Shown piece after piece: positions 9,175-64,000 of a stretch of 64,000 nt of DNA. The notes beneath the pieces are model-generated. The model saw only the letters and a list, made by a program, of their open reading frames with translations, was not told the origin of the DNA and did not search any database. Source of the DNA: a virus (Duplodnaviria > Heunggongvirae > Uroviricota > Caudoviricetes). A program made the translations under genes and the position numbers. The stretch is taken from IMG/VR virus record IMGVR_UViG_3300032053_000007; one strand, given 5' to 3'. Position 1 is the stretch's first letter. The number at the start of each line of letters is the position of its first letter.

Positions 9175-9596
9175 ACTGGCTTAAAAAAGCTAAAAAGAGT
9201 CTTAAAGAAAAATATAACCCCGATACACAGATAGATAAATGTGAATTGTGCGTATGTTGCTTCAAGAAATATAGAGAAGAATATGCCGTGGATTTTAACG
9301 ATGTATTTTTGAGGGCTTCTAATCTCGATAGTCGTATTAGTGGGGAATATTCACCTTATTACAACCTTATTAGGTTGAACAAAATGTATTTGAAACGTTT
9401 GTTCCAATTGAAAACCGTTGATGATGTAATTAGCCACGAGTTGGAACATGCATTAATTTATCGAATAATGCGGCGATTTGGTTTTTCAGAAGAAGTAAGC
9501 GATATTGGTTCTCTCTGTGTTTCCAAACCGTCACAATTTGATTTAAAAGATTTACGAGAGAAACTACATAAAAGGAAGCCAAAAAAATATGCCTGA
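9171..9596 (+). CDS. small HExxH metallopeptidase-motif protein
   Basis: VISHELEHALIY. Confidence 0.4.
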   Translation: MNWLKKAKKSLKEKYNPDTQIDKCELCVCCFKKYREEYAVDFNDVFLRASNLDSRISGEYSPYYNLIRLNKMYLKRLFQLKTVDDVISHELEHALIYRIMRRFGFSEEVSDIGSLCVSKPSQFDLKDLREKLHKRKPKKYA

Positions 9597-10266
9597 TGAA
9601 GAGAAAAGAAAAGAAATAAGACACCCAAGTTTTGGTGTAATAAATATCTCTAGGGGCGTTTGCTCAGAGAAAATGAATTTGTTTGGAAGCAGTATCCAGC
9701 AGAGAACATTCATCAGAGTAGATATTAGCAAAGCTATTCTTATGAGGGACCTTTACAAAGATTGGATTATGTCGGACCACGGCGTACCGATAGTATCCGT
9801 TTATCTTTCGCCGTCACAGTTTGCAGATGCTATAACATCTTTGAATCAGGGTGAAGGAACCCCATGCACAATACGTTACATGGATGGACATGAAGTAAAA
9901 GAGGCACAATTTGAAAGTAAACGTGTGCAGTTCGATACCGAATTCGAAGATAAGATGAAGGAAGTCGCATCGACTACTAACCAATTTTACACCAAGATTG
10001 CTGGGATACTAGCGAAGCCGAGCATAGGAAAACATGATAGGGAAGAAATTCAAAAGCAACTCGACCAGTTAAAGATGCAGATAGAAAATAATGTTCCTTT
10101 TATAAAAAGACAATTCTCAGAACAGATGGATGAAACTGTAGTCGAAGCAAAGAATGAAGTTACCGCATTCATAGAAGACAAAATAAAGAAGTTGGGCTTA
10201 GAGGGATACAAAAAGGAACTACAGAAATCTTTAGAATTCAAGGAAGAAAAGAAGGAAGAACCATGA
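9589..10266 (+). CDS. hypothetical protein (225 aa)
   Basis: Track ORF. Confidence 0.5.
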   Translation: MPDEEKRKEIRHPSFGVINISRGVCSEKMNLFGSSIQQRTFIRVDISKAILMRDLYKDWIMSDHGVPIVSVYLSPSQFADAITSLNQGEGTPCTIRYMDGHEVKEAQFESKRVQFDTEFEDKMKEVASTTNQFYTKIAGILAKPSIGKHDREEIQKQLDQLKMQIENNVPFIKRQFSEQMDETVVEAKNEVTAFIEDKIKKLGLEGYKKELQKSLEFKEEKKEEP

Positions 10267-16735: not shown

Positions 16736-16833
16736 ACAGAAAAGATATAGACTATCCTCTCATCTTTAGACGACTTCGCTGGTTTAAACGACTTGCTAAA
16801 GAATATCAGAAAGAAAAGGTGCAGTTCACATGA
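16732..16833 (+). CDS. 33-aa mini-protein (...EKVQFT)
   Basis: ATGA at both ends. Confidence 0.4.
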   Translation: MNRKDIDYPLIFRRLRWFKRLAKEYQKEKVQFT

Positions 16834-20385: not shown

Positions 20386-20564
20386 GGGTAGTGAATAAGA
20401 TACCATTTGAAGAGATAAAGGAACGTGCAAAATGTAAGGAATGTTTAAGGGAAGAATACTGCAAGCGTATTCCAGTAAACGACCTTATCGTTCAGGCAAT
20501 AAAGGAGAATGGCAAGTGCCCAGACTTTATTACAACAGCTTCCCCGCCACCCGCTTCCTTCTGA
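20376..20564 (+). CDS. small Cys-containing protein
   Basis: Last gene of array 1a. Confidence 0.4.
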   Translation: MAIRVVNKIPFEEIKERAKCKECLREEYCKRIPVNDLIVQAIKENGKCPDFITTASPPPASF

Positions 20565-20978
20565 GCATATACCAACTTTCTCTGGGATAGTCCCCTACCC
20601 CTAGCTCCCCTAGACGTTCAAAACTCCCTGAAAAAAAGACGTTTTCAGTTATTTTCTTTTCTCGAATCCTTAGTAAATCTAAATCGAAATGCTCAGGAAA
20701 TAGGAAATAAAAATAATACCAAAATAACAATCATAACAGAAATCACAAAGTTCGCCGACCAAAATCAAATTTTCGCCTGCGCGCCGCCTATGTGTGGGTA
20801 TGTGGTTTCAAAAAGTGTGACCGATGGTTTTTTCCTAAAGGTTTTTCTGCGTTACCCTTTTCCGTGTTTCCGTCTGGGTCACTTTCGAGGTTACGGTTAG
20901 TGTAACTTTCTGTGTCATTGAAAGTTCAACTCTTCCTTATATAATACGAGTTGCACCATATAAACCTTTCGGTAGTTA

Positions 20979-20994
20979 TTAATCAACTGATTAA
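20979..20994. promoter_or_regulatory. palindromic site TTAATCAACTGATTAA
   Basis: Perfect inverted repeat. Confidence 0.5.
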
Positions 20995-21310
20995 AAGTTT
21001 GGGGCATGGAGCCGAGGGGGTGGAAAAAAGCCATCTGACCCCCGAACTGAATCGAACTCGGCAATACGAGCAAATTTCGGGGCGATTTGGCTCCCGCCCT
21101 TTCCCACCGAGAAAATTTCCCATAGGGTGAGTTTCGAACTGAGTCGAATTTCCGAAAACGAGCAAATTTCGAGGCAGATAATTTTTACAGGTCTCGCAAA
21201 TGACCATCACTTTTTTGCTGGTTGGGGATGTTTGTATGGAGAGAATGGCTTTCGAAATTTTTCGAAGTGCCAAAAAAGCTCCCAACCCTGCTGGTCATGG
21301 AAACCGAATG

Positions 21311-21326
21311 TTTAATCAACTGATTA
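21311..21326. promoter_or_regulatory. palindromic site TTAATCAACTGATTAA
   Basis: Perfect inverted repeat. Confidence 0.5.
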
Positions 21327-21392
21327 AAATAGTTCCTTTTATGACCTTCGGCATGGAGAAGTCCATGCAAACCAGCGATACTCATAGGGTTT

Positions 21393-21430
21393 TGAGCATG
21401 GGAGTTCTTACTAAACCTTTATATAGGGGA
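21393..21430 (+). promoter_or_regulatory. conserved promoter module driving array 1b
   Basis: TTGAGCATGGGAGTTCTTACTAAACC-TTTATATA-GGGG. Confidence 0.5.
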
Positions 21431-21459
21431 AAGCTATATCTCTAGGTAGTGACCGATTA

Positions 21460-21681
21460 ATGGGAAAAGTTAGAGATACAATGAAGCAGATAGGAATCAG
21501 GAACAGACCGAAAACCAATCTCGATAATGCTCAATGTCTCATTCAATGGGTTGCAAAGAAACACCCAAAAGTCTTAACTGAATATCTTGACTCCGAATTT
21601 TTCAAGATTCTAACGAGAACAAACCAATACGTTAGCGTCATGGAAGCAATGCACTTTCTTGATACAGGGAAGGATGAATAA
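21460..21681 (+). CDS. hypothetical protein (73 aa)
   Basis: Track ORF. Confidence 0.45.
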   Translation: MGKVRDTMKQIGIRNRPKTNLDNAQCLIQWVAKKHPKVLTEYLDSEFFKILTRTNQYVSVMEAMHFLDTGKDE

Positions 21682-22337
21682 TGATTGAGGAAAAGAGAAA
21701 GAAAATTATAGTTACAATGGAACGGTTGCAAGACCTTCACCATTTAGCTATTCGACACCCGTTTCGTGTGAGTAGAAAAGGTACAACAGATGAATATTAT
21801 GACGTTCTTGATGAACTCGGTGAAGTTTTTCTAGCGTTAGTAAAGAAGTCTTTCGAGAACTCGGACATACCTTATCCGTGGTATCCGACAGGTAGATGGA
21901 TTTGGTCACACCAATATTGGTCATGCCTTCTTTCTCTCAGAGGGGAGATTGACGCTCAAACACCCGAATACATGGAAACTGTCGAACATTACCTAAATAC
22001 AATTCATCAATTCATGGAAAGAGAAAAACTCGAATCTTTCTATATGCACTCTGGTTATTCAACTTATGACAAGAAACAGCATGAAGAAAATCCCATGCGA
22101 AGTATGTTGTATGTCTATTATCCGAAAAGTAAAAGATGGGATTTGACAAAGTTCTGGGCTGAACGGGAATTGGAATATTGGAAGAAAGAACTAGCCGATG
22201 ATTTGGAACAAGTCAGGAAAGCAAAAAAAGATAAGGGACAATTCGTAAAAGTAAACGTCAACTATTATGAACGAAACACATATTACGATAGAAGAAGAAT
22301 AAAGGAATTGAAGGAGATAATAAATGGTGAAGCATAG
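21681..22337 (+). CDS. hypothetical protein (218 aa)
   Basis: Track ORF; TAATG overlap. Confidence 0.5.
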   Translation: MIEEKRKKIIVTMERLQDLHHLAIRHPFRVSRKGTTDEYYDVLDELGEVFLALVKKSFENSDIPYPWYPTGRWIWSHQYWSCLLSLRGEIDAQTPEYMETVEHYLNTIHQFMEREKLESFYMHSGYSTYDKKQHEENPMRSMLYVYYPKSKRWDLTKFWAERELEYWKKELADDLEQVRKAKKDKGQFVKVNVNYYERNTYYDRRRIKELKEIINGEA

Positions 22338-24870: not shown

Positions 24871-25013
24871 ATGCCAAAATCACTATGGCTTATACAGGAT
24901 TAACGTGTGACGGATGCGGAAGAAAACAGATTGTGGTAGTTCTTAAAGGAAGAAAGTGGCTTTGTTATGACTGTATGCACAAAATGGACGTGGAGAAAGT
25001 AACCTTTACTTGA
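24867..25013 (+). CDS. 48-aa Zn-ribbon mini-protein (...EKVTFT)
   Basis: CDGCG...CYDC; stop inside the TGAGCATGG module. Confidence 0.45.
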   Translation: MNAKITMAYTGLTCDGCGRKQIVVVLKGRKWLCYDCMHKMDVEKVTFT

Positions 25014-25046
25014 GCATGGTTCTTCTACCACAACCTTTATATAGTA
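25011..25046 (+). promoter_or_regulatory. terminator/promoter module after array 1
   Basis: TGAGCATGGTTCTTCTACCACAACC-TTTATATA. Confidence 0.45.
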
Positions 25047-27896: not shown

Positions 27897-28841
27897 ATGA
27901 GCGAAGAACAAAGTAAAAAAGAACTAGAGGAAAGAGCTAAATCTGTAATGGAGAGAATGGAAGAGATAATCGCTAAGGCTCAGAATGATGGAACGCTAGA
28001 GAGTTTTAACAAACCAATTCAACTTACTAAAGACTTTCTGACCACTAGACCGAACGATGCAAAGATAAAGACACAAATAGCATTATTCAAAAGCAGAACC
28101 TTCCTAGACAATTTCTTCTTAGACAAAGACGATAAACCTATGGGGGGCATTCCGAAAGTTGCACAGATAGGTGTGGTCGGAAACCCAGATGTCGGCAAGT
28201 CTTTAATCGCTCAGGAAGTTGCGCTCAGATTAGCTAGTGACGGAAACAAAGTTATTTTCACAACTAGCGAAGATATTTTCCAAGCTGACAACGACAGATT
28301 TGATTTGCAGAGTCGAATGAAACAGATGGCAACTTTTCTGGGACTGAGTTGGGAAAACATAAAGCAGAATCTTTTTGTGCTGGACGTTATTGCACACGGC
28401 GAACTTAGAGAATGGAATACACTTGTTTCAACTTATCGCGTACTCGTAGAACAGGAAAAGGCTGAGTTTCTAATTGTCGATTCGTTAACTCTCCTAGATG
28501 ATTATCGTGCTGGACTGAAATTCCACTTAGGCGAATTTGTCCGCTATAATCAGAAGAAAGGCGTGACAGGAATCTTTATCTCACAGAAAGCAAATGAGGA
28601 ATCAGTTGACCAACACGGACTTGCAGGGGGCATTGCATTAAGCCATTTGCTAGACGTGGAGTTTGAAATCAACTTTAAGAAACTCTCAAGTTGGGACGCT
28701 CAAATGAAAATCGACACCGAAGCAAAACAAGGCGAACTTCTACACTTCATACGGGTTCTCAAGTGTCGGCTAGGCAAGGCTGATATGCGATACCACAAAC
28801 TCCAAATAAGTAAAGATGGGATACTTCAATTAATCAAGTGA
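27897..28841 (+). CDS. RecA-superfamily ATPase (KaiC/RadA-like)
   Basis: Walker A GNPDVGKS, Walker B FLIVDSLT, KaiC-like GGIPKVAQIGVVG. Confidence 0.55.
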   Translation: MSEEQSKKELEERAKSVMERMEEIIAKAQNDGTLESFNKPIQLTKDFLTTRPNDAKIKTQIALFKSRTFLDNFFLDKDDKPMGGIPKVAQIGVVGNPDVGKSLIAQEVALRLASDGNKVIFTTSEDIFQADNDRFDLQSRMKQMATFLGLSWENIKQNLFVLDVIAHGELREWNTLVSTYRVLVEQEKAEFLIVDSLTLLDDYRAGLKFHLGEFVRYNQKKGVTGIFISQKANEESVDQHGLAGGIALSHLLDVEFEINFKKLSSWDAQMKIDTEAKQGELLHFIRVLKCRLGKADMRYHKLQISKDGILQLIK

Positions 28842-31553: not shown

Positions 31554-32450
31554 ATGAGAAATATACTAAAGAATAAAAACGGCGAATGGAGCATTATTCG
31601 AATTGCTATTGTTGTCATCATTTCCGCATTTCTAGTGTTGACAGGCGTTCTAGGAATCAGGACTGTTCCAAGCGGTTACATAGGCGTTTCTACTCAATTC
31701 GGGCAAATTACAGGCACAACGGGTGAAGGCATTCATTGGGTCAACATTTGGTTTGGACAAGACATAGTGAACATTGACTTGCAGATTCATAAAGCAGAAC
31801 TAGCAAACATGTCTTGTGGAACTAACGACATGCAAGAAGTCACAACCACAGTTGCAATAAACTATCGAATTGAGTCTGGATTTGCAGAGGATATTTACAG
31901 AACACTCCGCACAGATTGGGAATCACGGGTTATAATCAACAACATGCAAGAAAGTCTAAAAGGTTCAATCTCTACTTTCAAAGCAGAAGAACTTCTCCAA
32001 AAACGAGATGCAGTAAAAGTTCTCTTTTTAGACACACTTCGCTCACGAATAAAGGATTATCACATAACAGTCGTTGACGTTCAGCTAGAGAACTTCGCAT
32101 TCTCAACAAAGTTCAACGAAGCCATTGAGAACAAAGTAACAGCCGAACAGCAAGCAATCACAGAAAAGAACAACTTAGAAATAGTTCGCTATCAACAGGA
32201 ACAGGAAATTCTCAAGCAACAAGCACAAGCAAACATGACAAGAATTGAAGCAGACGCATACGCATACGCAACTTTGGCAAAAGCCAATGCAGACGCGGAA
32301 GCATTGCAATTAATCGCACAGAAACTAAATGTTAGCCCAGAATATCTTCAATATCTCTATCTGCAACAATGGGACGGCAAACTGCCGACCTATTACGGAA
32401 GCGGTATAATTCCGTTCTTCCAACTGCCAACCAATTCGACAACTCCATAA
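31554..32450 (+). CDS. SPFH/band-7 (prohibitin/stomatin/HflK-like) membrane protein
   Basis: N-terminal TM; SPFH-like core; Ala/Gln-rich coiled-coil C-terminus. Confidence 0.55.
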   Translation: MRNILKNKNGEWSIIRIAIVVIISAFLVLTGVLGIRTVPSGYIGVSTQFGQITGTTGEGIHWVNIWFGQDIVNIDLQIHKAELANMSCGTNDMQEVTTTVAINYRIESGFAEDIYRTLRTDWESRVIINNMQESLKGSISTFKAEELLQKRDAVKVLFLDTLRSRIKDYHITVVDVQLENFAFSTKFNEAIENKVTAEQQAITEKNNLEIVRYQQEQEILKQQAQANMTRIEADAYAYATLAKANADAEALQLIAQKLNVSPEYLQYLYLQQWDGKLPTYYGSGIIPFFQLPTNSTTP

Positions 32451-32537: not shown

Positions 32538-33218
32538 ATGAAAAAAAGAAATTTGATAATAATCGCGCTTTTGATTGCGTTAGTGATACCAATAGTGATA
32601 GTTCCAGCATTTGCTTCTGACGACAATGATAAGCCAAATTGCAATGACGGTGACGATGGCAACTCTTGTAACAACAAGACCAAAATAATCTACGTGGACA
32701 GAATTGTTTACGTCAACCAAACGGTTGAAGTTCCTGTTTACGTGGACAGAATAGTGTACGTTGACAGAGTTGTTGAGAAAATCGTTTACAAAGACAGAAT
32801 AGTGGAAAAGACTGTTTACATTGACAGAATAGTTGAAAAGATTGTCTATGTTGACAAAGTTGTTGAAACAGTCGTTTACGTTGAAGTGCCAATAGAGGTC
32901 ATCAAAGAAGTCATTAAGGAAGTGCCTGTCGAAGTCATCAAGGAAGTCGAAATAATCAAATACTGCAACAACACGGTCTATATCGAAGTGCCAAAAGAAG
33001 TCATCAAGTACATCGAGAAAGTCCTTTACGTGAACAGAGTTGTTTACGTTGACAAGCCATTCTACGTCTATATCACCGACAACAAGAAAGACTGTAACCC
33101 ATGTTGGCTCTTGATAATCATACTGACTTTCATACTAGGACTGATAATTGGGGCATTGCTCAACAATCGAAAGTGTGTTTGCGTCAAAGAAACCAAAAAC
33201 AAAAATACCAAACAATAG
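32538..33218 (+). CDS. secreted/membrane-anchored tandem-repeat protein
   Basis: Signal/TM at N-terminus, about 10-11-aa repeats (DRIVYVDRVVEK...) ×12, C-terminal TM. Confidence 0.55.
   Translation: MKKRNLIIIALLIALVIPIVIVPAFASDDNDKPNCNDGDDGNSCNNKTKIIYVDRIVYVNQTVEVPVYVDRIVYVDRVVEKIVYKDRIVEKTVYIDRIVEKIVYVDKVVETVVYVEVPIEVIKEVIKEVPVEVIKEVEIIKYCNNTVYIEVPKEVIKYIEKVLYVNRVVYVDKPFYVYITDNKKDCNPCWLLIIILTFILGLIIGALLNNRKCVCVKETKNKNTKQ
32690..33080 (+). repeat. roughly 30-33-nt coding tandem repeats inside 32538-33218
   Basis: GACAGAATAGTKTACGTTGACAGARTTGTTGAGAAAATCGTTTAC reiterated. Confidence 0.6.
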
Positions 33219-40027: not shown

Positions 40028-40233
40028 AGAAATATCCATTAGCTCTAACAAAGAAGTGCGGTAATTGTGGTAGAACTTTCACTTGTAAAGGGAGAGGATG
40101 GACTAAATCTTCAATAACGGGAAAATGTCCTCACGAATATAGCGTTTGTTGGTGTGAAAAATGCAATCATGGGTCGGGTCGTCCAGAAGGTTGCGAAGAG
40201 GTTGACTTAAAAGAAGTGGTGCAATTCACATGA
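40024..40233 (+). CDS. Zn-ribbon protein, CxxCxxxFxC family (...VVQFT)
   Basis: CGNCGRTFTCKG...CWCEKC. Confidence 0.55.
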   Translation: MKKYPLALTKKCGNCGRTFTCKGRGWTKSSITGKCPHEYSVCWCEKCNHGSGRPEGCEEVDLKEVVQFT

Positions 40234-41624: not shown

Positions 41625-41729
41625 TCCCCTACCCCTAGCTACATTTGACAGGTAAATAGACTAGGGAAAAAGACGTTCTGGATGCTAGGGCGAAGCCAAT
41701 GGGAACTGAAGCCTGAAGTCGGTGCTTTT

Positions 41730-41745
41730 TTAATCAGTTGATTAA
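41730..41745. promoter_or_regulatory. palindromic site TTAATCAGTTGATTAA
   Basis: Perfect inverted repeat. Confidence 0.5.
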
Positions 41746-42164
41746 AAGTCTGGGGAATACGTTGGGGGCTGGCAGAGGGCTTCACCATAAACCGAAATCT
41801 AATTGGGAAGAAAAAACGCCTATGTGCGTTATGTGACACTCAGGATTCTACTAAAAATTTAATTTTCGAGGGGACGGAAAGTTACACCGAAAGTGTGACC
41901 TAGCCTTCGTCCTCTAGTGCTTCCTCAAGTTCTGACGGGTCGGGACAACCAACGGGTCGCCTGAAAGTTTTAACTACTTTTGCAAGAACAATTAAACCTA
42001 TTATGAAACCCAGAGTATCAAACGGAAACATATTTGTGCCTCTTTGTGAATACTACAACACGGTAGCTTATAAATCTTTCCCTAAAAACGCCATGCTCAA
42101 TTTCCAGCACAGCTTTCACAATGGTCGCTTTTGCCAAACGGGACGCGGTGCGAGGCGCATTTAA

Positions 42165-42180
42165 TTAATCAGGTGATTAA
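42165..42180. promoter_or_regulatory. palindromic site TTAATCAGGTGATTAA
   Basis: Perfect inverted repeat. Confidence 0.5.
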
Positions 42181-42229
42181 CTGCTTCACGCCCCTTCACG
42201 CCGAGGCACGATGCGAACTGTTGAGCTTA

Positions 42230-42245
42230 TTTAATCAAATGATTA
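42230..42245. promoter_or_regulatory. palindromic site TTAATCAAATGATTAA
   Basis: Arms perfect; spacer AA instead of CANNTG. Confidence 0.45.
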
Positions 42246-42341
42246 ATTTCAAAACTCGAAGCCTTTACATTCGAAGTCTGCGCGTTGCCGTTTTCCAAGA
42301 CTGATTTTCCAAAACGAACCCGAACGAAACCCAGATTCCAT

Positions 42342-42520
42342 AGGACTGATGGTCTTTTTAACATCGTTTCCATTGGTCGAAAAGCATTATTTGAGCCTCT
42401 TCGAACAAAAGAAGGACACTCGTTCAATATCGTTTATATATGTTCGAAATTATTGAACGATTTGCCCCGAAGAGAACGCTCAGGGGATGAAATTGAGAGT
42501 CGGGCATTATCCACAGTCCT
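42342..42520 (+). ncRNA. candidate structured RNA/repeat element, copy 1 (179 nt)
   Basis: Starts AGGACTGATGG, ends CGGGCATTATCCACAGTCCT; complementary termini; second copy at 56348-56526. Confidence 0.3.
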
Positions 42521-42629
42521 TTGGGGGACACTACTTCGGGGCACAGTTAAACTCTAGGTGTAATAAAAGTTTCGACCATGCCTTTGACCATCAACATTTA
42601 AGTCACTCAGAGTGCAACCTTTCACTTTT

Positions 42630-42645
42630 TTAAACAGTTGATTAA
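42630..42645. promoter_or_regulatory. palindromic site TTAAACAGTTGATTAA
   Basis: One mismatch; 7 nt upstream of the promoter module. Confidence 0.45.
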
Positions 42646-42651
42646 CTAAAA

Positions 42652-42690
42652 CGAGCATGGTCGTTCTGGGGAAACCTTTATAAGCTACGC
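42652..42690 (+). promoter_or_regulatory. conserved promoter module
   Basis: CGAGCATGGTCGTTCTGGGGAAACC-TTTATAAG-CTACGCTGGCATCTATA. Confidence 0.55.
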
Positions 42691-42714
42691 TGGCATCTAT
42701 AAAGGTGTGGAAAA

Positions 42715-44442
42715 ATGACAAAGCAGAAACAAGCAAAGACGAACAACTTCTCTAAGATACTTGACGAGATGAGGAATCTTGCCATAGCAATTACGAAGGA
42801 CAAACGGATTCGTATCAAGTATATTCCAGAACAACCAACTTCTGCTTTCAATATGGAAAACTTTGAGATTTCTTTGAGTTTACAGAGTTATCCCGATTTC
42901 GTGAAAACATCGCCCCGTCTATTCCGAAAAATCCTAGACGGTGACATGGTTCACGAGTGCGGTCATCTGATTCTAACAAAACCGAATTGGGAATTTTTCA
43001 ACAATTGGACAACAAAAATCAAACGACAGAGAGGATTTTACAAGCTGGCTCACGAAGTTTGCAACATAGTTGAAGATAAGCGCGTGAATCATTTCATAAT
43101 TCTCAGATACAGGTTTGATGTCGGCAAGAGGCTACTTTTGGCGAATTTGATACTAAAAGACATGATAGACAACACAATTGAAAAGCCACAAATAGCCATG
43201 TCAACCATCTTACCGAAGGGCGAAAACTTAGGCGAAAACGAAATTCCAAACATGACAATTCAAGCTGGACAACAAGACGGGGTTTACATGGTTGCAATTT
43301 TGTGCAATGAAGGTCTATATGAGGCTAAATGCACAGAGTTATGGAACAAACTAAGCCCAGATGCTAGAAAGGACTGTGAAACAGCCCTTAAAGTGCTAGA
43401 GGGGACGAAATATCAACGTGTCAAACTCGACATAATAAGGTCTTGCCAAACGATTTATGAATTGGTAGCTAAACACTTGAACGCTGACTATACGACAAAG
43501 GAATATGTCGTTTCTAGAAGAGGGGGCAACGTAAAGGGCAAAATATCGGACAGACTTAGGCAATTACTAGAAAAAGAGGAAGAGCAAGAAAAGGCAGAAG
43601 AGGACAAGAAGAAACACCTAGAAGATTTGCAGAAAGGTTCGGGTGCTGGCGAAGGCACAGGCGAAGAGATTCCAGCCCCAGACCCAGATTTTGAGGCGTA
43701 TTCGAAACTTCTGGACGAATGCAAGCCTGAAATTTCCGAGCTATTGAATCAACTAAAGAAGAAAATGAAACCGAGAGTTCAACGGGACATTTTCCAGAAA
43801 CGCGGAAAAATGATGAGTCCAATTGTTCCACGCATCTACACAAACAGCTTTAGGGGAACCGTTCGCAATGTGTATCTGCGTACAACAACAAAATTTGAGA
43901 AGGAACAAGTCGCAATTCAATTTTGGTTCGATTTCTCAGGGTCAGTTAGTCGAATAGAGGCTGAAAAGATAACCACTATACTGAATGAGGTCTTTGGACA
44001 TTACGTTGACGATTACGGGTTCAGTATTGGGTGCTTTGGGGCAGATACCCAGAAAGTAAAGACTTTCTTTGAAACCTTCGAAAACACACGGGCAAGAATT
44101 GGAGCTATTTCGGTGAATGCTGGCGGTACTGAGGTTTCCGTTGGATTAGAGGCAAGCCTGAGAATGTTCAATACGATTAAAGGCGAACGCCGAAAGATTC
44201 TGGTCATTGCGTCCGATTTCTGCTTCTGTGGTGATGAAGAAACGAAAGCAGAGGAATTAATCGACCAATATGCGAAAGCTGGAATTGAATGTATCTTCAT
44301 AGGTTTCTGTGACTGTGAGAATGTAGAAACCTTCGCAAGCAAAGTGAAAAACTTGAAGTGCTCACGAACACGGATAAACCAAATATCCGAATTACCTCAG
44401 AGATTCCTAAACGTGTATCTAAACGTAGAAACCCAGAAGTGA
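42715..44442 (+). CDS. HExxH metallopeptidase-motif / von Willebrand factor A (vWA) fusion protein (575 aa)
   Basis: N-terminal MVHECGHLIL; acidic linker; C-terminal vWA MIDAS DFSGSVS...GGTEVS...IASDF. Confidence 0.6.
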   Translation: MTKQKQAKTNNFSKILDEMRNLAIAITKDKRIRIKYIPEQPTSAFNMENFEISLSLQSYPDFVKTSPRLFRKILDGDMVHECGHLILTKPNWEFFNNWTTKIKRQRGFYKLAHEVCNIVEDKRVNHFIILRYRFDVGKRLLLANLILKDMIDNTIEKPQIAMSTILPKGENLGENEIPNMTIQAGQQDGVYMVAILCNEGLYEAKCTELWNKLSPDARKDCETALKVLEGTKYQRVKLDIIRSCQTIYELVAKHLNADYTTKEYVVSRRGGNVKGKISDRLRQLLEKEEEQEKAEEDKKKHLEDLQKGSGAGEGTGEEIPAPDPDFEAYSKLLDECKPEISELLNQLKKKMKPRVQRDIFQKRGKMMSPIVPRIYTNSFRGTVRNVYLRTTTKFEKEQVAIQFWFDFSGSVSRIEAEKITTILNEVFGHYVDDYGFSIGCFGADTQKVKTFFETFENTRARIGAISVNAGGTEVSVGLEASLRMFNTIKGERRKILVIASDFCFCGDEETKAEELIDQYAKAGIECIFIGFCDCENVETFASKVKNLKCSRTRINQISELPQRFLNVYLNVETQK

Positions 44443-44448
44443 GTAAAA

Positions 44449-44613
44449 ATGGTTTGCATAATTGACGATAAAGAATGTAGAAAATTGGCAGACGAAATTT
44501 CTAAAGACCTCTTCGAATACAATAAACACAAGATAAAGCTAACCAAAAAATTCTTGTGGACTATGCTTTATTGCGAATTGAAACGAAGTAAACTTAACAA
44601 AACTCGAATGTGA
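44449..44613 (+). CDS. small basic protein (54 aa)
   Basis: Hand-translated. Confidence 0.3.
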   Translation: MVCIIDDKECRKLADEISKDLFEYNKHKIKLTKKFLWTMLYCELKRSKLNKTRM

Positions 44614-44619
44614 TAACTT

Positions 44620-44847
44620 GTGAAATATAAAAGACATTGCACACATTGTAAGAACAATTTTTTCTGCAACGGAAAATGCAAAAGTGATAGACTTAAAAAT
44701 CCGAATGACTGTTATTGTCTTGAGTGTGTAAAAAAAGTTTCGGAAGAGTTTTCAAAGTTGTCTGGGGCAGACTCTACTTATGAATCTTTTAACGTTGTTC
44801 AATTTCATTGCCAAGAATCGGGCAGAGAAGAAGTGCAATTTACTTAA
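44620..44847 (+). CDS. Zn-ribbon protein, CxxCxxxFxC family (...EEVQFT, TAA)
   Basis: CTHCKNNFFCNGKC...CYCLEC. Confidence 0.5.
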   Translation: MKYKRHCTHCKNNFFCNGKCKSDRLKNPNDCYCLECVKKVSEEFSKLSGADSTYESFNVVQFHCQESGREEVQFT

Positions 44848-44896
44848 ACTTTTGGTGCAACCTTTGGTTCGGGCGGGAGAGGGGTTTTGAGAAATT

Positions 44897-44912
44897 TTAA
44901 TCAGTTGATTAA
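44897..44912. promoter_or_regulatory. palindromic site TTAATCAGTTGATTAA
   Basis: 8 nt upstream of the promoter module. Confidence 0.55.
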
Positions 44913-44919
44913 CTAAAAT

Positions 44920-44956
44920 GAACATGGTCTTTCTAAGCAAACATTTAAATAGGACG
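44920..44956 (+). promoter_or_regulatory. conserved promoter module (TTTAAATA)
   Basis: TGAACATGGTCTTTCTAAGCAAACA-TTTAAATA-GGACGCTGGCATCTATACT. Confidence 0.55.
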
Positions 44957-44985
44957 CTGGCATCTATACTCGTAAGGTAATAAAG

Positions 44986-45873
44986 ATGAACTCAGAATTT
45001 GAAAAGATTCATGCAAAGGTCGAATCAGCACTTGAAGGTGCTGGCATCTACGTCAAAGGCATCGAGTTCGTGGACGAACATGGCTACATTGAAAAGTCAA
45101 GAGCGATTCTTGAAATTGTCGGCAACCTTAGATTAGTCGGCGAAACGGGGACGGGCAAAACAACTCTTGTTCACAAGTTGGCTGAATTGTTAGAGGTTCC
45201 GCTTTTTGAAATTGTCTTAACACGGGACGTGACAAAGTGGGATTTGCTGGCATGTGATACTCTGAAAGCTGGAAGCACAGAAACAAGAGATGGAATCATA
45301 ATTCAATGGTTGAACAGCGAGAAAGGTCTGCTTTACATAGACGGGTTCAACTATGCAGAACCATCGATAATTTCACTTCTGGAATCATTGGCAGACTTTA
45401 GGGGAAACGTGTATATTCCAGAATACAAGAAGCAATTCACACGGACAGCACAGCACTATCTCGTTATCAGCTATAACCCCTCAGAAAAATCGGGTTACTC
45501 TGGGACATTCATCGAGAACATTGCAACCATTAGACGATTTGAAGGTCTGATAATCGAATACCTTAGCCCCCAGAAAGAACGCGAATTGGTAAAGAAGTTC
45601 TCTGGAAACTATGACTTTTCTGCGAAGTTCGTAGAAATTGCCAAAAAGACGCGAACCGAATACGAGAACGGAAAACTTAGAACGCCCCTCACGACAGGCA
45701 ACCTAATAAACTACGGCAAACTCTACAAAGCGAAGATGTCCGAAGAGGACATAATCGATATAGCAAGTTCGCTTTACACCGCAAGAGAAGAGCGCAATTT
45801 ATTTAGGTCGTTCTTCGAAGATAGCTCTGAGATAGACGTAGAAAAGTTGAAAAAGAAAGAAGAGGATACCTAA
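44986..45873 (+). CDS. MoxR-family AAA+ ATPase
   Basis: Walker A GETGTGKTTL; Walker B/sensor LLYIDGFNYAEPSIISLLESL; 295 aa. Confidence 0.65.
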   Translation: MNSEFEKIHAKVESALEGAGIYVKGIEFVDEHGYIEKSRAILEIVGNLRLVGETGTGKTTLVHKLAELLEVPLFEIVLTRDVTKWDLLACDTLKAGSTETRDGIIIQWLNSEKGLLYIDGFNYAEPSIISLLESLADFRGNVYIPEYKKQFTRTAQHYLVISYNPSEKSGYSGTFIENIATIRRFEGLIIEYLSPQKERELVKKFSGNYDFSAKFVEIAKKTRTEYENGKLRTPLTTGNLINYGKLYKAKMSEEDIIDIASSLYTAREERNLFRSFFEDSSEIDVEKLKKKEEDT

Positions 45874-46937: not shown

Positions 46938-47300
46938 GTGTTTCAAATGAAATGTCAAGACTGTGAAAAAGAAACAAATACAAAATCTCAAAGATGTCCT
47001 GAATGCCAAAAGATATATCACCAAAAATGGCTAGAAGAATTAAAACTCTGGGCGATTCAAAAGTTAGGCGATAAGTGTTTTCATTGCGATAAACATTTTG
47101 ATTCTTGTGTTTATGATTTTCACCATGAAGGAAACGATACATGGCTTCGTTGCAATGAACAACAAAAAAATGCGAATCGAAGAGTAAAAGAATTGGTTCG
47201 TTGGAGAAGGGCAGAGAAAATTCCAGAGGACGTTCGATTAGTCTGCGCGAATTGTCACAGAATTATTAGTCATAAATCGTTTAATCACCTGATTAAGTAA
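46938..47300 (+). CDS. HNH endonuclease
   Basis: CFHC...DFHHEGND...N...LVCANCHRII. Confidence 0.55.
   Translation: MFQMKCQDCEKETNTKSQRCPECQKIYHQKWLEELKLWAIQKLGDKCFHCDKHFDSCVYDFHHEGNDTWLRCNEQQKNANRRVKELVRWRRAEKIPEDVRLVCANCHRIISHKSFNHLIK
47281..47296. promoter_or_regulatory. palindromic site TTAATCACCTGATTAA
   Basis: Overlaps the 3' end of the HNH gene; 7 nt upstream of the promoter module. Confidence 0.5.
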
Positions 47301-47302
47301 AA

Positions 47303-47340
47303 TGAGAATGGAGATTCCTAGCAAACGTTTATATAGGACG
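47303..47340 (+). promoter_or_regulatory. conserved promoter module
   Basis: TGAGAATGGAGATTCCTAGCAAACG-TTTATATA-GGACGCTG. Confidence 0.55.
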
Positions 47341-47352
47341 CTGTATTTATAG

Positions 47353-47368
47353 TTAATCAAGTGATTAA
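47353..47368. promoter_or_regulatory. palindromic site TTAATCAAGTGATTAA between TATA and start codon
   Basis: Second site flanking the same promoter. Confidence 0.5.
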
Positions 47369-47369
47369 A

Positions 47370-48059
47370 ATGGCTGACCAAAAAACGACAAACAAACTCA
47401 TCATAGACGAAAAGGCTCTTGAATCGTTAGGACTACACGGCGAAACGATTTATACAATAGAGTATGACCTTTACAGCGAGAAATATCTGACGGACGCGGA
47501 AAAGAAAAAGTTGACAAAAGAACAACGGGACGCAAACACGCGATTCAACAAACTTGCGCGAATTTTCAGAAACGCAATTGTGTTCGCTCTGAAATTCAAG
47601 CTGGACGCTGTGAAACATCTCGAAAGCAGTTGGCTTCTGGACGGCGATAAGCTGGACTTAGCTGTTGCAGAAATTGAAGAGATAAAGGCAAAGGCAAAGA
47701 GCAAAGGATTTGAGGACATCGACAGACGCATAAAAATCATTCCGATTTTCACGACCCCAGAAGGATTCGAAAACTACAAAGACAAGAAAGCAGAGTTCAT
47801 TCTTAACTTCATAATGGAACACGTCAAGATGGCAGAGGACGGGTTAAAAGACAAACGCATGGCTCAGAGCACACTTTGGAGATGTCGAAAAGCAGTTGAG
47901 ATTTGCAATTCACACATCGAAAGCATGAAGGGACACGAGCGATATAACGAAATGTTAGACACCGTGAATATGCTGGACGAATTGAACGGGCAATGCGAAA
48001 GTTTTCTCTGTGACCAAAAGGCAGAAAAGGCAAAGAAGAACAAGAAAGAAGAGGACTGA
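47370..48059 (+). CDS. hypothetical coiled-coil protein (about 229 aa)
   Basis: Track ORF 47361-48059; ATG at 47370. Confidence 0.5.
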   Translation: MADQKTTNKLIIDEKALESLGLHGETIYTIEYDLYSEKYLTDAEKKKLTKEQRDANTRFNKLARIFRNAIVFALKFKLDAVKHLESSWLLDGDKLDLAVAEIEEIKAKAKSKGFEDIDRRIKIIPIFTTPEGFENYKDKKAEFILNFIMEHVKMAEDGLKDKRMAQSTLWRCRKAVEICNSHIESMKGHERYNEMLDTVNMLDELNGQCESFLCDQKAEKAKKNKKEED

Positions 48060-50605: not shown

Positions 50606-50820
50606 TTTGTTCTAAATGTGGAAACGAGTTCAAACAACGAATTAACGAGAAATTATGCTTTAATTGTATGATGTACGAGCTAGACAGGCTCAGAGAGCAA
50701 GGCGAACGCATAGACAAGTTACTTTCCGATAACCCAGAGATAATGGAACTCTTAGACAAAATGAAGGCGCGAGAGATTATTAACCGTCTAAAGGGACGGG
50801 AAACGGTGACGTTCACATGA
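50602..50820 (+). CDS. Zn-ribbon protein (...TVTFT)
   Basis: CSKCGNE...CFNC (track ORF 50566-50820). Confidence 0.5.
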   Translation: MICSKCGNEFKQRINEKLCFNCMMYELDRLREQGERIDKLLSDNPEIMELLDKMKAREIINRLKGRETVTFT

Positions 50821-54608: not shown

Positions 54609-54746
54609 ATGATAACACTAAAAACCGTGATTAAGAAAGTAAAAGAGAACGCTGGCATAATCATGGCATTTGCCCCGATAGCCTTTTTCGTAGTTGTAAT
54701 AGCTCTAATACTTTCTGGAATACTCAAAGTTCACATTGAATTTTGA
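54609..54746 (+). CDS. small membrane protein (45 aa)
   Basis: Hydrophobic core; stop inside the TGAGCATGG module. Confidence 0.35.
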   Translation: MITLKTVIKKVKENAGIIMAFAPIAFFVVVIALILSGILKVHIEF

Positions 54747-54780
54747 GCATGGACGTTCTTAGGAAACCTTTATATAGCTC
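54744..54780 (+). promoter_or_regulatory. conserved promoter module
   Basis: TGAGCATGGACGTTCTTAGGAAACC-TTTATATA. Confidence 0.5.
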
Positions 54781-55068: not shown

Positions 55069-55336
55069 TTTGACATACTACTCTATCAAGGGCGAAGGGA
55101 TATTGTTCCATTTTTTCACCGTCCTTTCTCGCGCTTTCCCTTCGCCCGTTCTACTCATTCCTTCTAACCTCTCTAACCCTCTACAAACTTAGACGATTTC
55201 ACTAACACTTTTTGTTAAAGACCTCAGAACCCCCGACCCAGAGAGCCTTTACACTTTTTGATTTCACCACGTCAACCGAAACTGACCCAAGTTCTGCCCA
55301 AGCCGTCTTGAGCCTCTCTCACGAAACCCAGATTTT

Positions 55337-55352
55337 TAATCAACTGATTAAC
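55337..55352. promoter_or_regulatory. palindromic site TTAATCAACTGATTAA
   Basis: Perfect inverted repeat. Confidence 0.5.
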
Positions 55353-55672
55353 GAATCGTAGCTCGTAACGAGGCTGTGCACCCTTTACCCCGACCTCTAA
55401 CCATATAACACAAATTGTTAAGCAAATTCCCGAACCCCAGAGAACCCACGTCCGACCCCTAACCCAGACCCTCTAACGACCTCTAATCACTAACCCCCCC
55501 AAGAGAGCCATATACCCCCAAAAGTGGAGTCCATGCTTAAAAGAAATGCTCGATAAAAGATACTGATGACCTTTACATACGTAAAGGAAAGGGTTGTCAT
55601 ACGTAAAGGGTCTATGGAGTGGAATGTTGGCATACGACAACGGCGTGATTGACATAGTGCTGTAGCTCTATT

Positions 55673-55688
55673 TTAAACAGGTGATTAA
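55673..55688. promoter_or_regulatory. palindromic site TTAAACAGGTGATTAA
   Basis: One mismatch. Confidence 0.4.
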
Positions 55689-55813
55689 CGACCCCATTAT
55701 AAAGAAGTCCCCCCCCTCTAGCTCCCCTGAATGCCAAAACAAGCCTAGAAAAAAGACGTTTTGGCAAACGGTGACTTTATTATCCGAAAGGCTCGCGGAA
55801 CTGTGGAGAATTT

Positions 55814-55829
55814 TTAATCAGGTGATTAA
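55814..55829. promoter_or_regulatory. palindromic site TTAATCAGGTGATTAA
   Basis: Perfect inverted repeat. Confidence 0.5.
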
Positions 55830-56347
55830 GCAGGGCGAACCGACAGGTAGAAGGGACGGCGTGAACTCTCTGACCAGAAAATAATTGGAACCAAAAAAAC
55901 GCCTATGTGCGCTTATGTGATATTCTCAGTTGCATTCTATGGACAATTTCCTGTTAACCGAGGCGTTACCCCAAAAGTTGCACTTTTTGTTACACTAGAA
56001 GTTGTGCTAGACCAAAACGTTTATATACCCCCTATTTAAGCGTATCGCCGATAGCCTTATATAGTAGCTATTTAAACCTATCGGTTGCTTATATATGTGC
56101 AAACTTAGCAAAATTCGAACCATAAAGTACAACTCTCTATTATCACGTCCTTCGAACCATATACCGCAACTCTTATATAGATGCCATACTTACTTATAAA
56201 CGTTTGCCCAGAACGACCATGCTCGATTTAGAGGCTGATTCAGGGCGGAAACAACTAACGGAGCACACTTACAGATTCGAACTCGCGCCGATGACTAGCT
56301 CTGAGACTGATTAACTAAAACGAACGTCATCGAACGGTGAATTCATT

Positions 56348-56526
56348 AGGACTGATGACAATTTTGACGTTCTAACATTACCCCGAACTCCACGATTTAG
56401 CCTTATTCGACTAAACGGGGCGTACTCGCTCAATATCGTTGAGCAAATATAAAGGGAATTGAGCGTATTGCTCCGAACGACCCGCTCACAGGTTGATTTT
56501 AGAAAACGGGCATTATCCACAGTCCT
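56348..56526 (+). ncRNA. candidate structured RNA/repeat element, copy 2 (179 nt)
   Basis: AGGACTGATGA...CTCGCTCAATATCGTT...CGGGCATTATCCACAGTCCT; same length and termini as 42342-42520. Confidence 0.3.
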
Positions 56527-56783
56527 ACCCGCCATTGCTGGCGCGAACGGGCTTCGAACTTGGTTGTACTTTGAGTTACATTGAATATACATCATGCGTT
56601 ACTATGTAATATACGCTTAACGCGAACAACTCCAACTCTCTCAAACATACGTTCTCAGCGCACTATATATACGTTTGCTTTTTCCTGTACGACACATCTA
56701 CAAGTCAATGGTCGAACTGTTGGTTTAAGCTACACTTTAATGGAAACGTTTATAAGAGAGGGTGCGAACGTTATTCTAAGGAC

Positions 56784-57287
56784 GTGAAACACTTGAACGA
56801 TAAGGACGAATTGACACGACTTGAAAACTTAGCGCAAAAACTAGGTTTTACCGTGATATATAATTTAACCCTTAGCTGGAATCATTCGAAGGTTTCCTTT
56901 TATCCATGTCGAAGAATCCTTATCGGAACTAAGAACTATTCACCAAATTCAAATATCGGTTATGGAACCATACCTGATAAGGTTAAAGCGTTAATTCTGA
57001 ATCACGAGCTAGGGCATATTGTCGTATATGAAACGCTTTACCCTAACATGGATTTAGCTGATTTTTGTCTCTCAAATGATTCAAAATTCTTGGTACAACA
57101 AGAGATGTACGCATGGAAAACCGCAATAAATGAATCGCTCGATGATAATTCTGACCCTCTAGTGTTGGAATTGATACAAGAATCGATAAACCAATACATT
57201 TATTGTGAGTATATCGGAACATGCACAATAGAATCTCAGCAAGAACTACAGCAAAAAATAATTACTAAGTTTACACGTACAAAATAG
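56784..57287 (+). CDS. HExxH motif protein (167 aa)
   Basis: GTG start; LILNHELGHIVVYE. Confidence 0.5.
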   Translation: MKHLNDKDELTRLENLAQKLGFTVIYNLTLSWNHSKVSFYPCRRILIGTKNYSPNSNIGYGTIPDKVKALILNHELGHIVVYETLYPNMDLADFCLSNDSKFLVQQEMYAWKTAINESLDDNSDPLVLELIQESINQYIYCEYIGTCTIESQQELQQKIITKFTRTK

Positions 57288-63389: not shown

Positions 63390-64000
63390 ACAGCACGGGC
63401 TAATTGCCCGTGTTCCTAGTGATTAGCCTCTAGGTAGAATATAGCTAACTGATGAACCTTATAGGCTATGGTTTATAGGGTCAAGGTTGTTGCACTACAC
63501 TTGCAAGCTAGAGGCTATCACACAATAATACTTTTAGTACAACTAATTAGTTACACTTTTAGTTATACCAAATCCTTATATACTAGCCTGTTTCACTTGT
63601 GCACAACACTACTATATAAACCTTTCACAACCCTTATATACTAGAGCCTCACTCACGAGCACAGCACTACTATATAAGGCTTACGCAACCCTTATATACT
63701 ACACCCTACCCCCTACCCCTATTTAAACTTATCGCAACGCTTATATACTAGACCCGCCCCTCTACCCCCTTATAAAGCTATCGGACAATTCTCAGTTGCA
63801 CTTTCGGTTGCACCCACAAGAGCACTAACAATTATCACAAAAAGTACAACTTTCAGTTACATCAACAAGTCCCCCGCCAGTTCCACCCACAGGCGAATCA
63901 GAGGTAATATAGTCCCCCCCTAAACACAGGAATTCGATTTTGGTGGATGGGACTAAGCTGGGTAAATTGCCCTATGTTTCAACTGGGTCATGATGTTTCA
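63390..64000. repeat. ORF-free repeat island at the window end (tandem CCTTATATACTA boxes)
   Basis: At least 6 TATA-like boxes 63560-63760, CCCTACCCCCTACCCC, GTTGCACTTTCGGTTGCAC. Confidence 0.5.

Follow-up and report, generated by a model that had tools for sequence, protein, structure and literature searches.

What does a virus-like element do with a MoxR-type AAA+ ATPase and a neighboring protein that combines a metallopeptidase-like HExxH motif with a von Willebrand factor A (vWA) domain? The question is raised by 64,000 nucleotides (nt) of DNA from IMG/VR virus record IMGVR_UViG_3300032053_000007 (the whole stretch is called the window here), which is part of a 151.8-kb metagenomic contig. 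An earlier note on this DNA had pointed to two open reading frames (ORFs), and its positions proved exact: the ORF list of the window has one of 575 amino acids (aa) at 42715..44442 and one of 295 aa at 44986..45873, both on the plus strand, and every peptide that had been quoted was found. Here we describe the two proteins as a very divergent CobS/CobT-like pair, which is real but not a new kind of system. New relative to the known pairs are a third linked gene, a palindrome–promoter module shared by the three genes, and an ATPase family in which nearly all members have lost the Walker-B glutamate. We consider it probable that the three genes form a co-regulated module of a large virus-like element, in which a CobS/CobT-type ring and an adaptor with a competent zincin domain mature or remodel a virus-specified target, either together with the product of the third gene or acting on it.

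Three linked genes and their promoters

The 575-aa protein (hereafter the adaptor) had no direct match in Pfam, NCBIfam, PHROG, or PADLOC, a phmmer search of the PDB returned low-complexity noise alone, and a tblastn search of 50,697 phage records gave no match. Its relatives came from metagenomes (77 at the 90%-cluster level), and in an exhaustive profile search with the family, the representatives numbered 65 at a threshold of E ≤ 1e-30 and 517 at one of E ≤ 1e-3. Conservation within the family was assessed in an alignment of 29 members that are 29–85% identical (alignment A1).

The N-terminal domain (aa 1-262, 42715..43500, plus strand) is zincin-like. The HExxH motif at aa 80-84 (nt 42952-42966) is invariant in H80, E81, and H84 in alignment A1 and is found in 112 of the 116 full-length family members. 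Equally invariant are E120, D121, and R123 of the sequence NIxEDKRVN (E120-D121-x-R123, nt 43072-43083), as well as D135 and G137. A separate model of aa 1-262 (predicted local distance difference test score, pLDDT, 87.9; predicted template modelling score 0.84) has an N-terminal helix, a three-stranded sheet (33-36, 44-46, and 51-54), the long HExxH helix (67-104), and a next helix (109-131) that carries E120 and D121 at a distance of 36-37 residues from H84 and is followed by more helices. Among the long fold matches, the best were M48 peptidases and minigluzincins (BepA, Ste24/ZMPSTE24, selecase, and jannalysin), which likewise have the HExxH motif on an active-site helix after a small beta-sheet and an acidic residue on the following helix. 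The HExxH module noticed earlier thus seems to belong to a zincin-like and not to a non-peptidase fold, and its description as metallopeptidase-like agrees with the invariant motif.

The N-domain is followed by a charged helical linker rich in Gly, acidic residues, and Pro (aa 263-353, 43501..43773, plus strand). Within this otherwise variable region, the motif GAGEGTGxEIPxPxPxxxxY (aa 309-329, nt 43639-43701) stands out, with G312, G316, P320, P322, and Y329 being invariant or at least 90% conserved in alignment A1. Between aa 301 and 320, the pLDDT falls to block means of 62 and 77. The Gly/Pro motif might serve as a hinge or as a docking peptide, or the protein could cleave itself there. 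Phage CobT-like proteins possess linkers of similar Gly/acid-rich composition. Next comes a conserved pre-vWA segment (aa 354-398, 43774..43908, plus strand; FQKRGKMM..IVPRIY..SFRG..). AlphaFold2 modelled aa 359-387 of this segment at low confidence, and Q361, G364, Y375, S378, V383, and Y387 are conserved although their pLDDT is below 50.

The C-terminal part of the adaptor (aa 399-575, 43909..44442, plus strand) adopts a Rossmann-like vWA fold with a complete MIDAS motif (for metal ion-dependent adhesion site), composed of D406-x-S408-x-S410 (nt 43930-43944), T472 (nt 44128-44130), and D501 (nt 44215-44217). D406, S408, S410, and D501 are invariant in alignment A1, T472 is conserved to at least 90%, and all 116 full-length members have DxSxS. 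The Pfam VWA profile did not match the window protein even at E ≤ 1; among 29 relatives, PF00092 matched 23, VWA_2 21, and VWA_CoxE 11. The vWA/MIDAS assignment made earlier stood up to the analysis.

Some relatives of the adaptor are much longer (about 900–1230 aa) due to inteins. The carriers (P0005, P0011, P0018–P0020, P0059, P0204, P0213, and P0221) have one or two inteins each, at four conserved sites overall: one close to the HExxH helix, one immediately ahead of IVEDKR (residue ~116), one between GAGEG and TG (residue ~315), and one in the vWA domain (residue ~427). Inteins usually occupy conserved sites in important genes.

The 295-aa protein (44986..45873, plus strand) is a MoxR-class ATPase of the CobS/NorQ/CbbQ-like type. 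It matched Pfam AAA_5 well above the cut-off (E 1.1e-13, 51.8 bits versus 22), with additional weak matches to CbbQ_C, AAA_3, and bpMoxR (E 0.0028), and PHROG_249 ("porphyrin biosynthesis") matched residues 30-293 with E 8.9e-28. Sequence matches in the PDB were midasin (2e-20), CbbQ (5c3c, 3.7e-12), NorQ (6.7e-10), and CobS (1.9e-5), in agreement with the MoxR assignment made earlier. The NCBIfam matches to CobS (E 1e-5; 24.9 bits versus an equivalog cut-off of 558) and GvpN were weak and far below threshold.

What the earlier note had missed is that this ATPase has lost the Walker-B glutamate. Its Walker A motif (GETGTGKT, aa 52-59, nt 45139-45162) is intact, and its K58 is shared by 118 of the 120 relatives, with a gap in the remaining two. 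The Walker B motif (LLYIDG, aa 115-120, nt 45328-45345) contains Gly120 in place of the catalytic Glu, at the position that aligns with the Walker-B Glu of the midasin AAA domains and of phage CobS-like ATPases. Among the 120 family members, 114 have D-G, five have D-E, and one has D-N, whereas the phage CobS-like ATPases have retained the Glu (D-E, or N-E in Brevibacterium phage Cantare). A divergent relative, L013, has G-E in Walker B and GKD in Walker A.

The other functional positions of the ATPase are almost fully conserved (N164 of sensor 1 and R183 in 120 of 120, R184 and R223 in 119 of 120). N164 as sensor 1, R183/R184 as Arg finger, and R223 as sensor-2 candidate were assigned by their order in the alignment relative to N186, R210, and R271 of CobS. 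Highly conserved are also the segments in which the helix-2 and pre-sensor-1 beta-hairpin pore inserts are expected (W85, D86, L87, D91, G96, R101, G103, and W108; D137-F-R-G140). Judged from the alignment, the family appears to keep all residues for nucleotide binding and sensing while lacking the canonical catalytic base, and hydrolysis may be impaired because 114 of the 120 members have D-G and not D-E. In CobS, the E142Q exchange at the position equivalent to G120 abolishes ATP hydrolysis (bioRxiv 10.64898/2026.07.21.739949).

A conserved third gene, orf232, had been overlooked. It covers 47361..48059 on the plus strand and encodes 232 aa when started at the GTG at 47361; gene callers use the ATG at 47370, which results in 229 aa. 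Its family comprises 67 clusters and showed no homology in Pfam, PHROG, or PDB searches, including those with the family profile. The linkage of orf232 to the pair was analyzed in eight independent loci, which are the contig of the window itself, the intein-bearing L003–L006 group, the IMG/VR uncultivated viral genomes L010–L012, and L013–L015. In 8/8 of these loci, a stretch of about 3 kb holds the vWA gene, the ATPase gene, and the orf232 homologue (in the window, the three span about 5.3 kb from end to end), and the adaptors share 33–100% identity with that of the window. Three arrangements occur, namely vWA-ATPase-orf232 in the clade of the window, ATPase-orf232-vWA in L010–L013 and L015, and orf232-ATPase-vWA in L014. 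As the linkage survives these rearrangements, it is strong evidence that the three genes are a functional unit.

The three genes also share their promoter region. Repeat family D10 consists of exactly three 74-nt modules, one per gene, of which modules 1 and 2 are 82% identical. Module 1 (42628..42701, plus strand), in front of the vWA gene, contains the palindrome TTAAACAGTTGATTAA (42630-42645), the element GAGCATGG-N3-TTCT from 42653, and AAACC-TTTATAAG, which resembles a transcription factor B-recognition element (BRE) and TATA box, with the TATA part at 42677-42684 beginning 38 nt upstream of the ATG. Module 2 (44895..44968, plus strand), in front of the ATPase gene, has its palindrome, TTAATCAGTTGATTAA, at 44897-44912, followed by the GAACATGG element that begins at 44920 and by the TATA-like TTTAAATAG from 44944. 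The third module, before orf232 (47279..47368, plus strand), has a palindrome at 47281-47296, a TATA box at 47328-47333, and a second palindrome at 47353-47368, between the TATA box and the start codon. A distance of exactly 23 nt between the palindrome and the GAGCATGG element downstream of it is seen only at the promoters of these three genes. This arrangement suggests that the three genes are co-regulated via the shared module.

The single parts of these modules are widespread. The palindrome TTAATCAnnTGATTAA occurs 24 times in the window, compared to 1.1 expected copies, and was therefore rejected as a locus-specific signal. Its sites (for example 5097, 25370/25421, 33389/33447, 52306/52371, and 55336-55829) are often paired at a distance of 50-70 nt and are situated upstream of the promoter element in some cases and between TATA box and start codon in others. 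Presumably, the palindrome is bound by a dimeric regulator that the element itself encodes. "Operator-guarded", as the promoters had been called, is thus a fair description of the sequence, including the module shared at 82% identity, with the qualifications that the palindrome is element-wide and that the regulatory role is a conjecture.

The promoter consensus GAGCATGG-N3-TTCTAG-N2-AAAnn-TTTATAWAGGACG has about 28 copies on the plus strand (for example 961-990, 25012-25041, and 54745-54774) and precedes many genes. Its AAAnn-TTTATA part resembles an archaeal BRE/TATA box, which suggests archaeal transcription. We know of no counterpart that could be named for the upstream GAGCATGG..TTCT element.

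Relation to CobS–CobT and other MoxR–vWA pairs

In tblastn searches of the phage records, the ATPase was about 25–29% identical to CobS-like genes, which are labelled as porphyrin biosynthesis, cobalt chelatase subunit, or CobS. Each of these phage genes adjoins a gene for a protein of 580–700 aa. In Ochrobactrum phage vB_OspM_OC, this neighbor is annotated as CobT and contains ...HESAH...NVCEDVRID..., and in phage Cantare it contains ...HELCH...ILEDQRIE.... The neighbor in Stenotrophomonas phage BUCTxx99 matches Pfam CobT_C (8.5e-30) and CobT (1.4e-4) and has the degenerate motif HGFLD.

Profile comparisons link the adaptor to these proteins. With hhalign, alignment A1 matched the CobT-annotated protein of vB_OspM_OC with a probability of 95.9% (E 5e-9) over the zincin core, with HExxH and EDxR aligned, and the N-domain matched the distant relative P0336, which passes the Pfam thresholds of both CobT (PF06213) and CobT_C, with 90.2% (E 1.6e-6). 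The comparison of A1 with the Cantare partner was not significant (5%), although HExxH...EDxR can be seen there by eye. Neither the window protein nor the family summary matched Pfam CobT or CobT_C (PF11775); CobT_C was matched only by distant relatives (those related to the family at E 1e-8 to 1e-18), of which P0336 also matches CobT. Among the 65 distant representatives of at least 450 aa, all have DxSxS, 33 have HExxH...EDxR, and 18 lack HExxH. Because of the hhalign and hidden Markov model links and the shared motifs, we regard the window protein as a divergent member of the CobT-like superfamily that has kept the catalytic signature. HExxH is lacking in some CobT-type proteins, such as that of BUCTxx99, and is invariant in the window family.

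A metallopeptidase–vWA protein paired with a MoxR ATPase has been described in T4-like ("group 2.2") jumbo phages, where a role in virion assembly with proteolytic processing was proposed (Iyer et al., 2021, PMC7824862). Judging from the taxonomy of vB_OspM_OC (Kyanoviridae, 227 kb), its two genes are probably an instance of this jumbo-phage pair. The combination had been called unusual for a virus-like element, which was overstated, because the architecture is already known from phages and is that of CobT, as the profile comparisons show. Like the jumbo-phage and vB_OspM_OC pairs, the window has an AAA_5-type ATPase beside a protein with a HExxH...EDxR zincin-like domain, a Gly/acid linker, and a C-terminal vWA domain. 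However, the similarity of its adaptor to the vB_OspM_OC-type proteins lies below the reach of tblastn, its ATPase has an identity of only about 25–29%, and Walker B is D-G instead of D-E. The window family also differs from the jumbo-phage pair by its conserved third gene and its probable archaeal host.

The closest structural model is the CobS–CobT complex (PDB 9uka and related entries). The N-domain of CobT (CobT_N) consists of helix a1, a three-stranded sheet, and further helices and resembles a peptidase M48C domain, a disordered linker of about 90 residues follows, and directly before the vWA domain there is a "shaft" that enters the pore of the CobS ring on nucleotide binding and is ordered only when inserted (bioRxiv 10.64898/2026.07.21.739949). 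CobT_N binds to the small subdomain of CobS, and the client CobN is located opposite the ring on CobT, close to the MIDAS (bioRxiv 10.64898/2026.07.21.739949). The window pair shares with CobS–CobT the MoxR-class ring and the tripartite adaptor, composed of an M48C-like N-domain, a linker, and the pre-vWA segment with the vWA domain. By analogy, aa ~359-387 of the adaptor are a candidate shaft that may enter the ATPase pore. Unlike CobS–CobT, the window has no CobN, no Pfam CobT match, no Walker-B Glu, and no tetrapyrrole context.

MoxR-type ATPases with vWA/MIDAS partners are also known from archaeal viruses. In Acidianus two-tailed virus (ATV), the MoxR protein p618 binds the vWA protein p892 as well as several virion proteins, and on the basis of interaction assays, a chaperone role in tail development has been assigned to the two proteins (PMC4124505); the ATV system was described without a peptidase domain (Iyer et al., 2021, PMC7824862). 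Similar AAA–vWA pairs exist in haloarchaeal siphoviruses (PMC7911831), among them Hardycor1 and HVTV-1, and no relevant genes were found in the record of halovirus HGTV-1. The ATV and haloviral proteins differ from those of the window in being much larger (618/892 aa; 711 aa), and they had no sequence match with the window in the tblastn search of phage records. NorQ–NorD, CbbQ–CbbO, and Rea1/midasin are, unlike the window pair, cellular machines for cofactor insertion or ribosome assembly that have known clients and no zincin domain.

Proposed mechanism and alternative explanations

The domain identities, the motif conservation, the gene linkage, and the shared promoter module were observed; that the proteins form a complex, that a segment enters the pore, that the zincin domain cleaves, which protein is the client, and when in the life cycle the module acts are inferred, with a mechanism that is modelled on the solved CobS–CobT, NorQ–NorD, and Rea1 systems. 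The MoxR-class ATPase would form a hexameric ring, and the 575-aa protein would serve as a CobT-like adaptor with an M48-like zincin domain, a flexible linker, the pre-vWA segment, and a MIDAS-competent vWA domain. The N-domain of the adaptor would dock onto the lid subdomain of the ATPase, the pre-vWA segment would enter the central pore upon nucleotide binding, and the MIDAS face, directed away from the ring, could capture an acidic residue of a client. As the zincin site is intact, unlike in canonical CobT, where this domain is described only as a docking surface, we propose that it cleaves the captured client or the conserved linker of the adaptor itself. Since Gly replaces the Walker-B Glu in about 95% of the family, the ring may work as a slow clamp or switch that depends on ATP and not as a fast unfoldase, and the cycle may be gated by the binding of ATP rather than by its rapid hydrolysis. 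The module would then serve to mature or process a virus-specified target in a nucleotide-gated manner, with the 232-aa product of orf232 as the best candidate for the client or for a third subunit. The maturation or activation system that the earlier note had considered remains the best-supported reading, in which the assembly or maturation role is assigned only by analogy.

A bolder version of this idea, which we regard as rather doubtful, is that the ATPase is an ATP-gated clamp that licenses the vWA-tethered active zincin to cut a single partner, either the orf232 product or the adaptor's own Gly-rich linker. In that case, the module would be a self-contained three-protein switch that belongs to the core gene set of an undescribed lineage of archaeal viruses of about 100–150 kb and represents a catalytically active ancestral state of CobT.

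Several points weigh against a nucleotide-gated maturation device. The third zinc ligand, for which E120 and D121 are the candidates, is a guess, and as the N-domain of canonical CobT has been described only as a docking surface, catalysis is not guaranteed. With CobS E142Q being inactive and the Walker-B Glu being absent in most family members, the classical motor mechanism may not apply. The orf232 product has no recognizable fold or family, no structural (capsid or tail) genes were found near the module, and the element is plausibly, though not demonstrably, an archaeal virus.

As it was in principle possible that the zincin-like domain has no catalytic role at all, we considered that it merely docks on the ATPase lid and helps to hold the client, so that the module would be, like NorQD, CbbQO, and CobST, a chaperone solely for remodelling or insertion. 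In the solved CobSTN complexes, CobT_N indeed touches the CobS small subdomain and CobN, with no catalysis described, and HExxH is missing from some CobT-like relatives, such as that of BUCTxx99 with its degenerate HGFLD, and from 18 of 65 distant relatives. However, docking alone can hardly explain why HExxH and EDxR are invariant in sequences of 29–85% identity, with HExxH retained in 112 of 116 members, and inteins target the HExxH and EDKR motifs. We therefore think that a scaffold-only function is unlikely.

The same architecture would equally fit a targeted protease that acts in host takeover or anti-defence, with the vWA/MIDAS domain capturing an immune or housekeeping protein of the host, the ring remodelling it, and the zincin domain cleaving it. 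The lack of adjoining structural genes would agree with this, as would the position of the module amid many tiny, fast-evolving, Cys-rich ORFs that are typical of accessory regions. On the other hand, the presence of the three genes in 8/8 independent loci at 33–100% identity and the inteins fit a core function better, and PADLOC found no match to known defence or anti-defence families. We judge a host-directed role to be quite unlikely.

Very improbable, in our view, is an element-borne defence function as a MoxR–vWA ternary conflict system (Kaur et al., 2020), with the peptidase effector fused to the vWA protein and the orf232 product as sensor. The number of three components and the weak bpMoxR match would suit such a system, of which metallopeptidase effectors fused to the vWA component are rare variants (PMC7159879). 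However, PADLOC gave no significant match, the orf232 product has no similarity to VMAP, iSTAND, or FtsH, the ATPase is closest to AAA_5 proteins of the CobS/NorQ/CbbQ/midasin type while the conflict systems derive from CoxD–CoxE, and the module was absent from 185,579 reference genomes and seen only on virus-like contigs.

That the module is an auxiliary metal chelatase, in which a CobS/CobT- or BchI/BchD-like motor inserts cobalt or another metal into a tetrapyrrole with a CobN/ChlH-type subunit of the host, as the PHROG label "porphyrin biosynthesis" would suggest, is hardly credible despite the PHROG_249 and NCBIfam CobS matches of the ATPase and the superfamily link of the adaptor to CobT and CobT_C, as there is no CobN-like ORF in the window (the 575-aa gene is the longest ORF in the 64 kb) or in the related loci, the CobS score is far below the cut-off, the Walker-B Glu that CobS needs is absent, and the conserved third partner, orf232, is unrelated to CobN.

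The surrounding element

Between the vWA and the ATPase gene, the window contains two small plus-strand ORFs, one of 54 aa (44449..44613) that is not Cys-rich and one of 75 aa (44620..44847) that is Cys-rich, resembles a Zn ribbon, and ends with EEVQFT. The earlier description as two small Zn-ribbon genes thus fits the second ORF and not the first. Both are present only in the identical contigs L001 and L002 and not in L003–L006 or L010–L012, and we rejected them as members of the system because they are not conserved in related elements, which makes them passengers. In L003–L006, the place between the vWA and the ATPase gene is occupied by a free-standing LAGLIDADG endonuclease gene.

Relatives are found on contigs of 40–150 kb. 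Three relatives are IMG/VR viral contigs, one relative of the ATPase is labelled as coming from an Aenigmatarchaeota metagenome-assembled genome, and no relative turned up when the family patterns were run against 185,579 GTDB species genomes. Nearly all ORFs of the window are on the plus strand, at a GC content of 35-43%. Recognizable genes are those for two family-2 glycosyltransferases, an RNA ligase, a KaiC/RecA-like ATPase, an SPFH protein, a weakly terminase-like ATPase, and a phrog_6452 protein. The KaiC/RecA-like ATPase, RNA ligase, and SPFH/Band-7 genes lie at 27897-28841, 7298-8416, and 31554-32450, and the first two are found again on the contig of a distant relative, L014 (1528-2475 and 16358-17239), which suggests a common core gene set for these elements. 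The phrog_6452 protein (9589-10266, 225 aa; E 2.7e-40), the function of which is unassigned, is 27–33% identical to proteins in 53 phage records. Many of these belong to large bacterial phages (Stenotrophomonas, Brevundimonas, Sphingobium, and Yersinia phiR1-37), and 22 are Microbacterium phages, some of only about 53 kb.

A conspicuous signal of the window is the gene-junction motif GGTnnnnTTYACWTGA, which has 49 copies (0.05 expected), 47 of them on the plus strand. Sites are, for example, 16818-16833, 40218-40233, and 50805-50820, with clusters at 16.4-24.9, 35.3-41.3, and 48.7-51.7 kb. Within the motif, translation of the following gene starts at the WTG, which shares nucleotides with the TGA stop codon of the gene before it. 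Because of this overlap, dozens of small, mostly Cys-rich proteins end with ...(E/K)V-x-F-T. The motif looks like a fixed signal for translational coupling or re-initiation, composed of a GGTG that resembles a Shine-Dalgarno sequence and a conserved TTCAC.

Three ORF-poor regions of about 1.1-1.5 kb (20500-21700, 41625-42714, and 55250-56800) have short blocks in common and contain several copies of the palindrome. The block AGTCCCCTACCCCTAGC is found at 20589, 41623, and 55706, and 42452-42520 resembles 56458-56526. Neither Rfam families nor tRNAs were detected by scanning the window, in these regions or elsewhere. The ORF-poor regions may represent regulatory hubs, origins of replication, or genes for non-coding RNA. 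Tandem repeats with 58-nt and 49-nt units that carry the TATA-like CCTTATATACTA are located near the end of the window (63571-63783), and a 30-nt unit is repeated 4.5 times at 32750-32884 within the ORF 32538..33218.

The module draws attention to a group of large virus-like elements that are almost wholly unannotated and in which the signals at promoters and gene junctions are very regular. With its natural Walker-B-Gly MoxR ring and its fixed set of three genes, it is a compact system for asking what a viral MoxR–vWA pair acts on. The family connects the recently reported M48C-like N-domain of CobT with versions that have retained the complete catalytic motif. The "CobS/CobT" or "porphyrin biosynthesis" labels that many viral genes carry probably denote a general module of MoxR ATPase, adaptor, and protease and not cobalamin synthesis.

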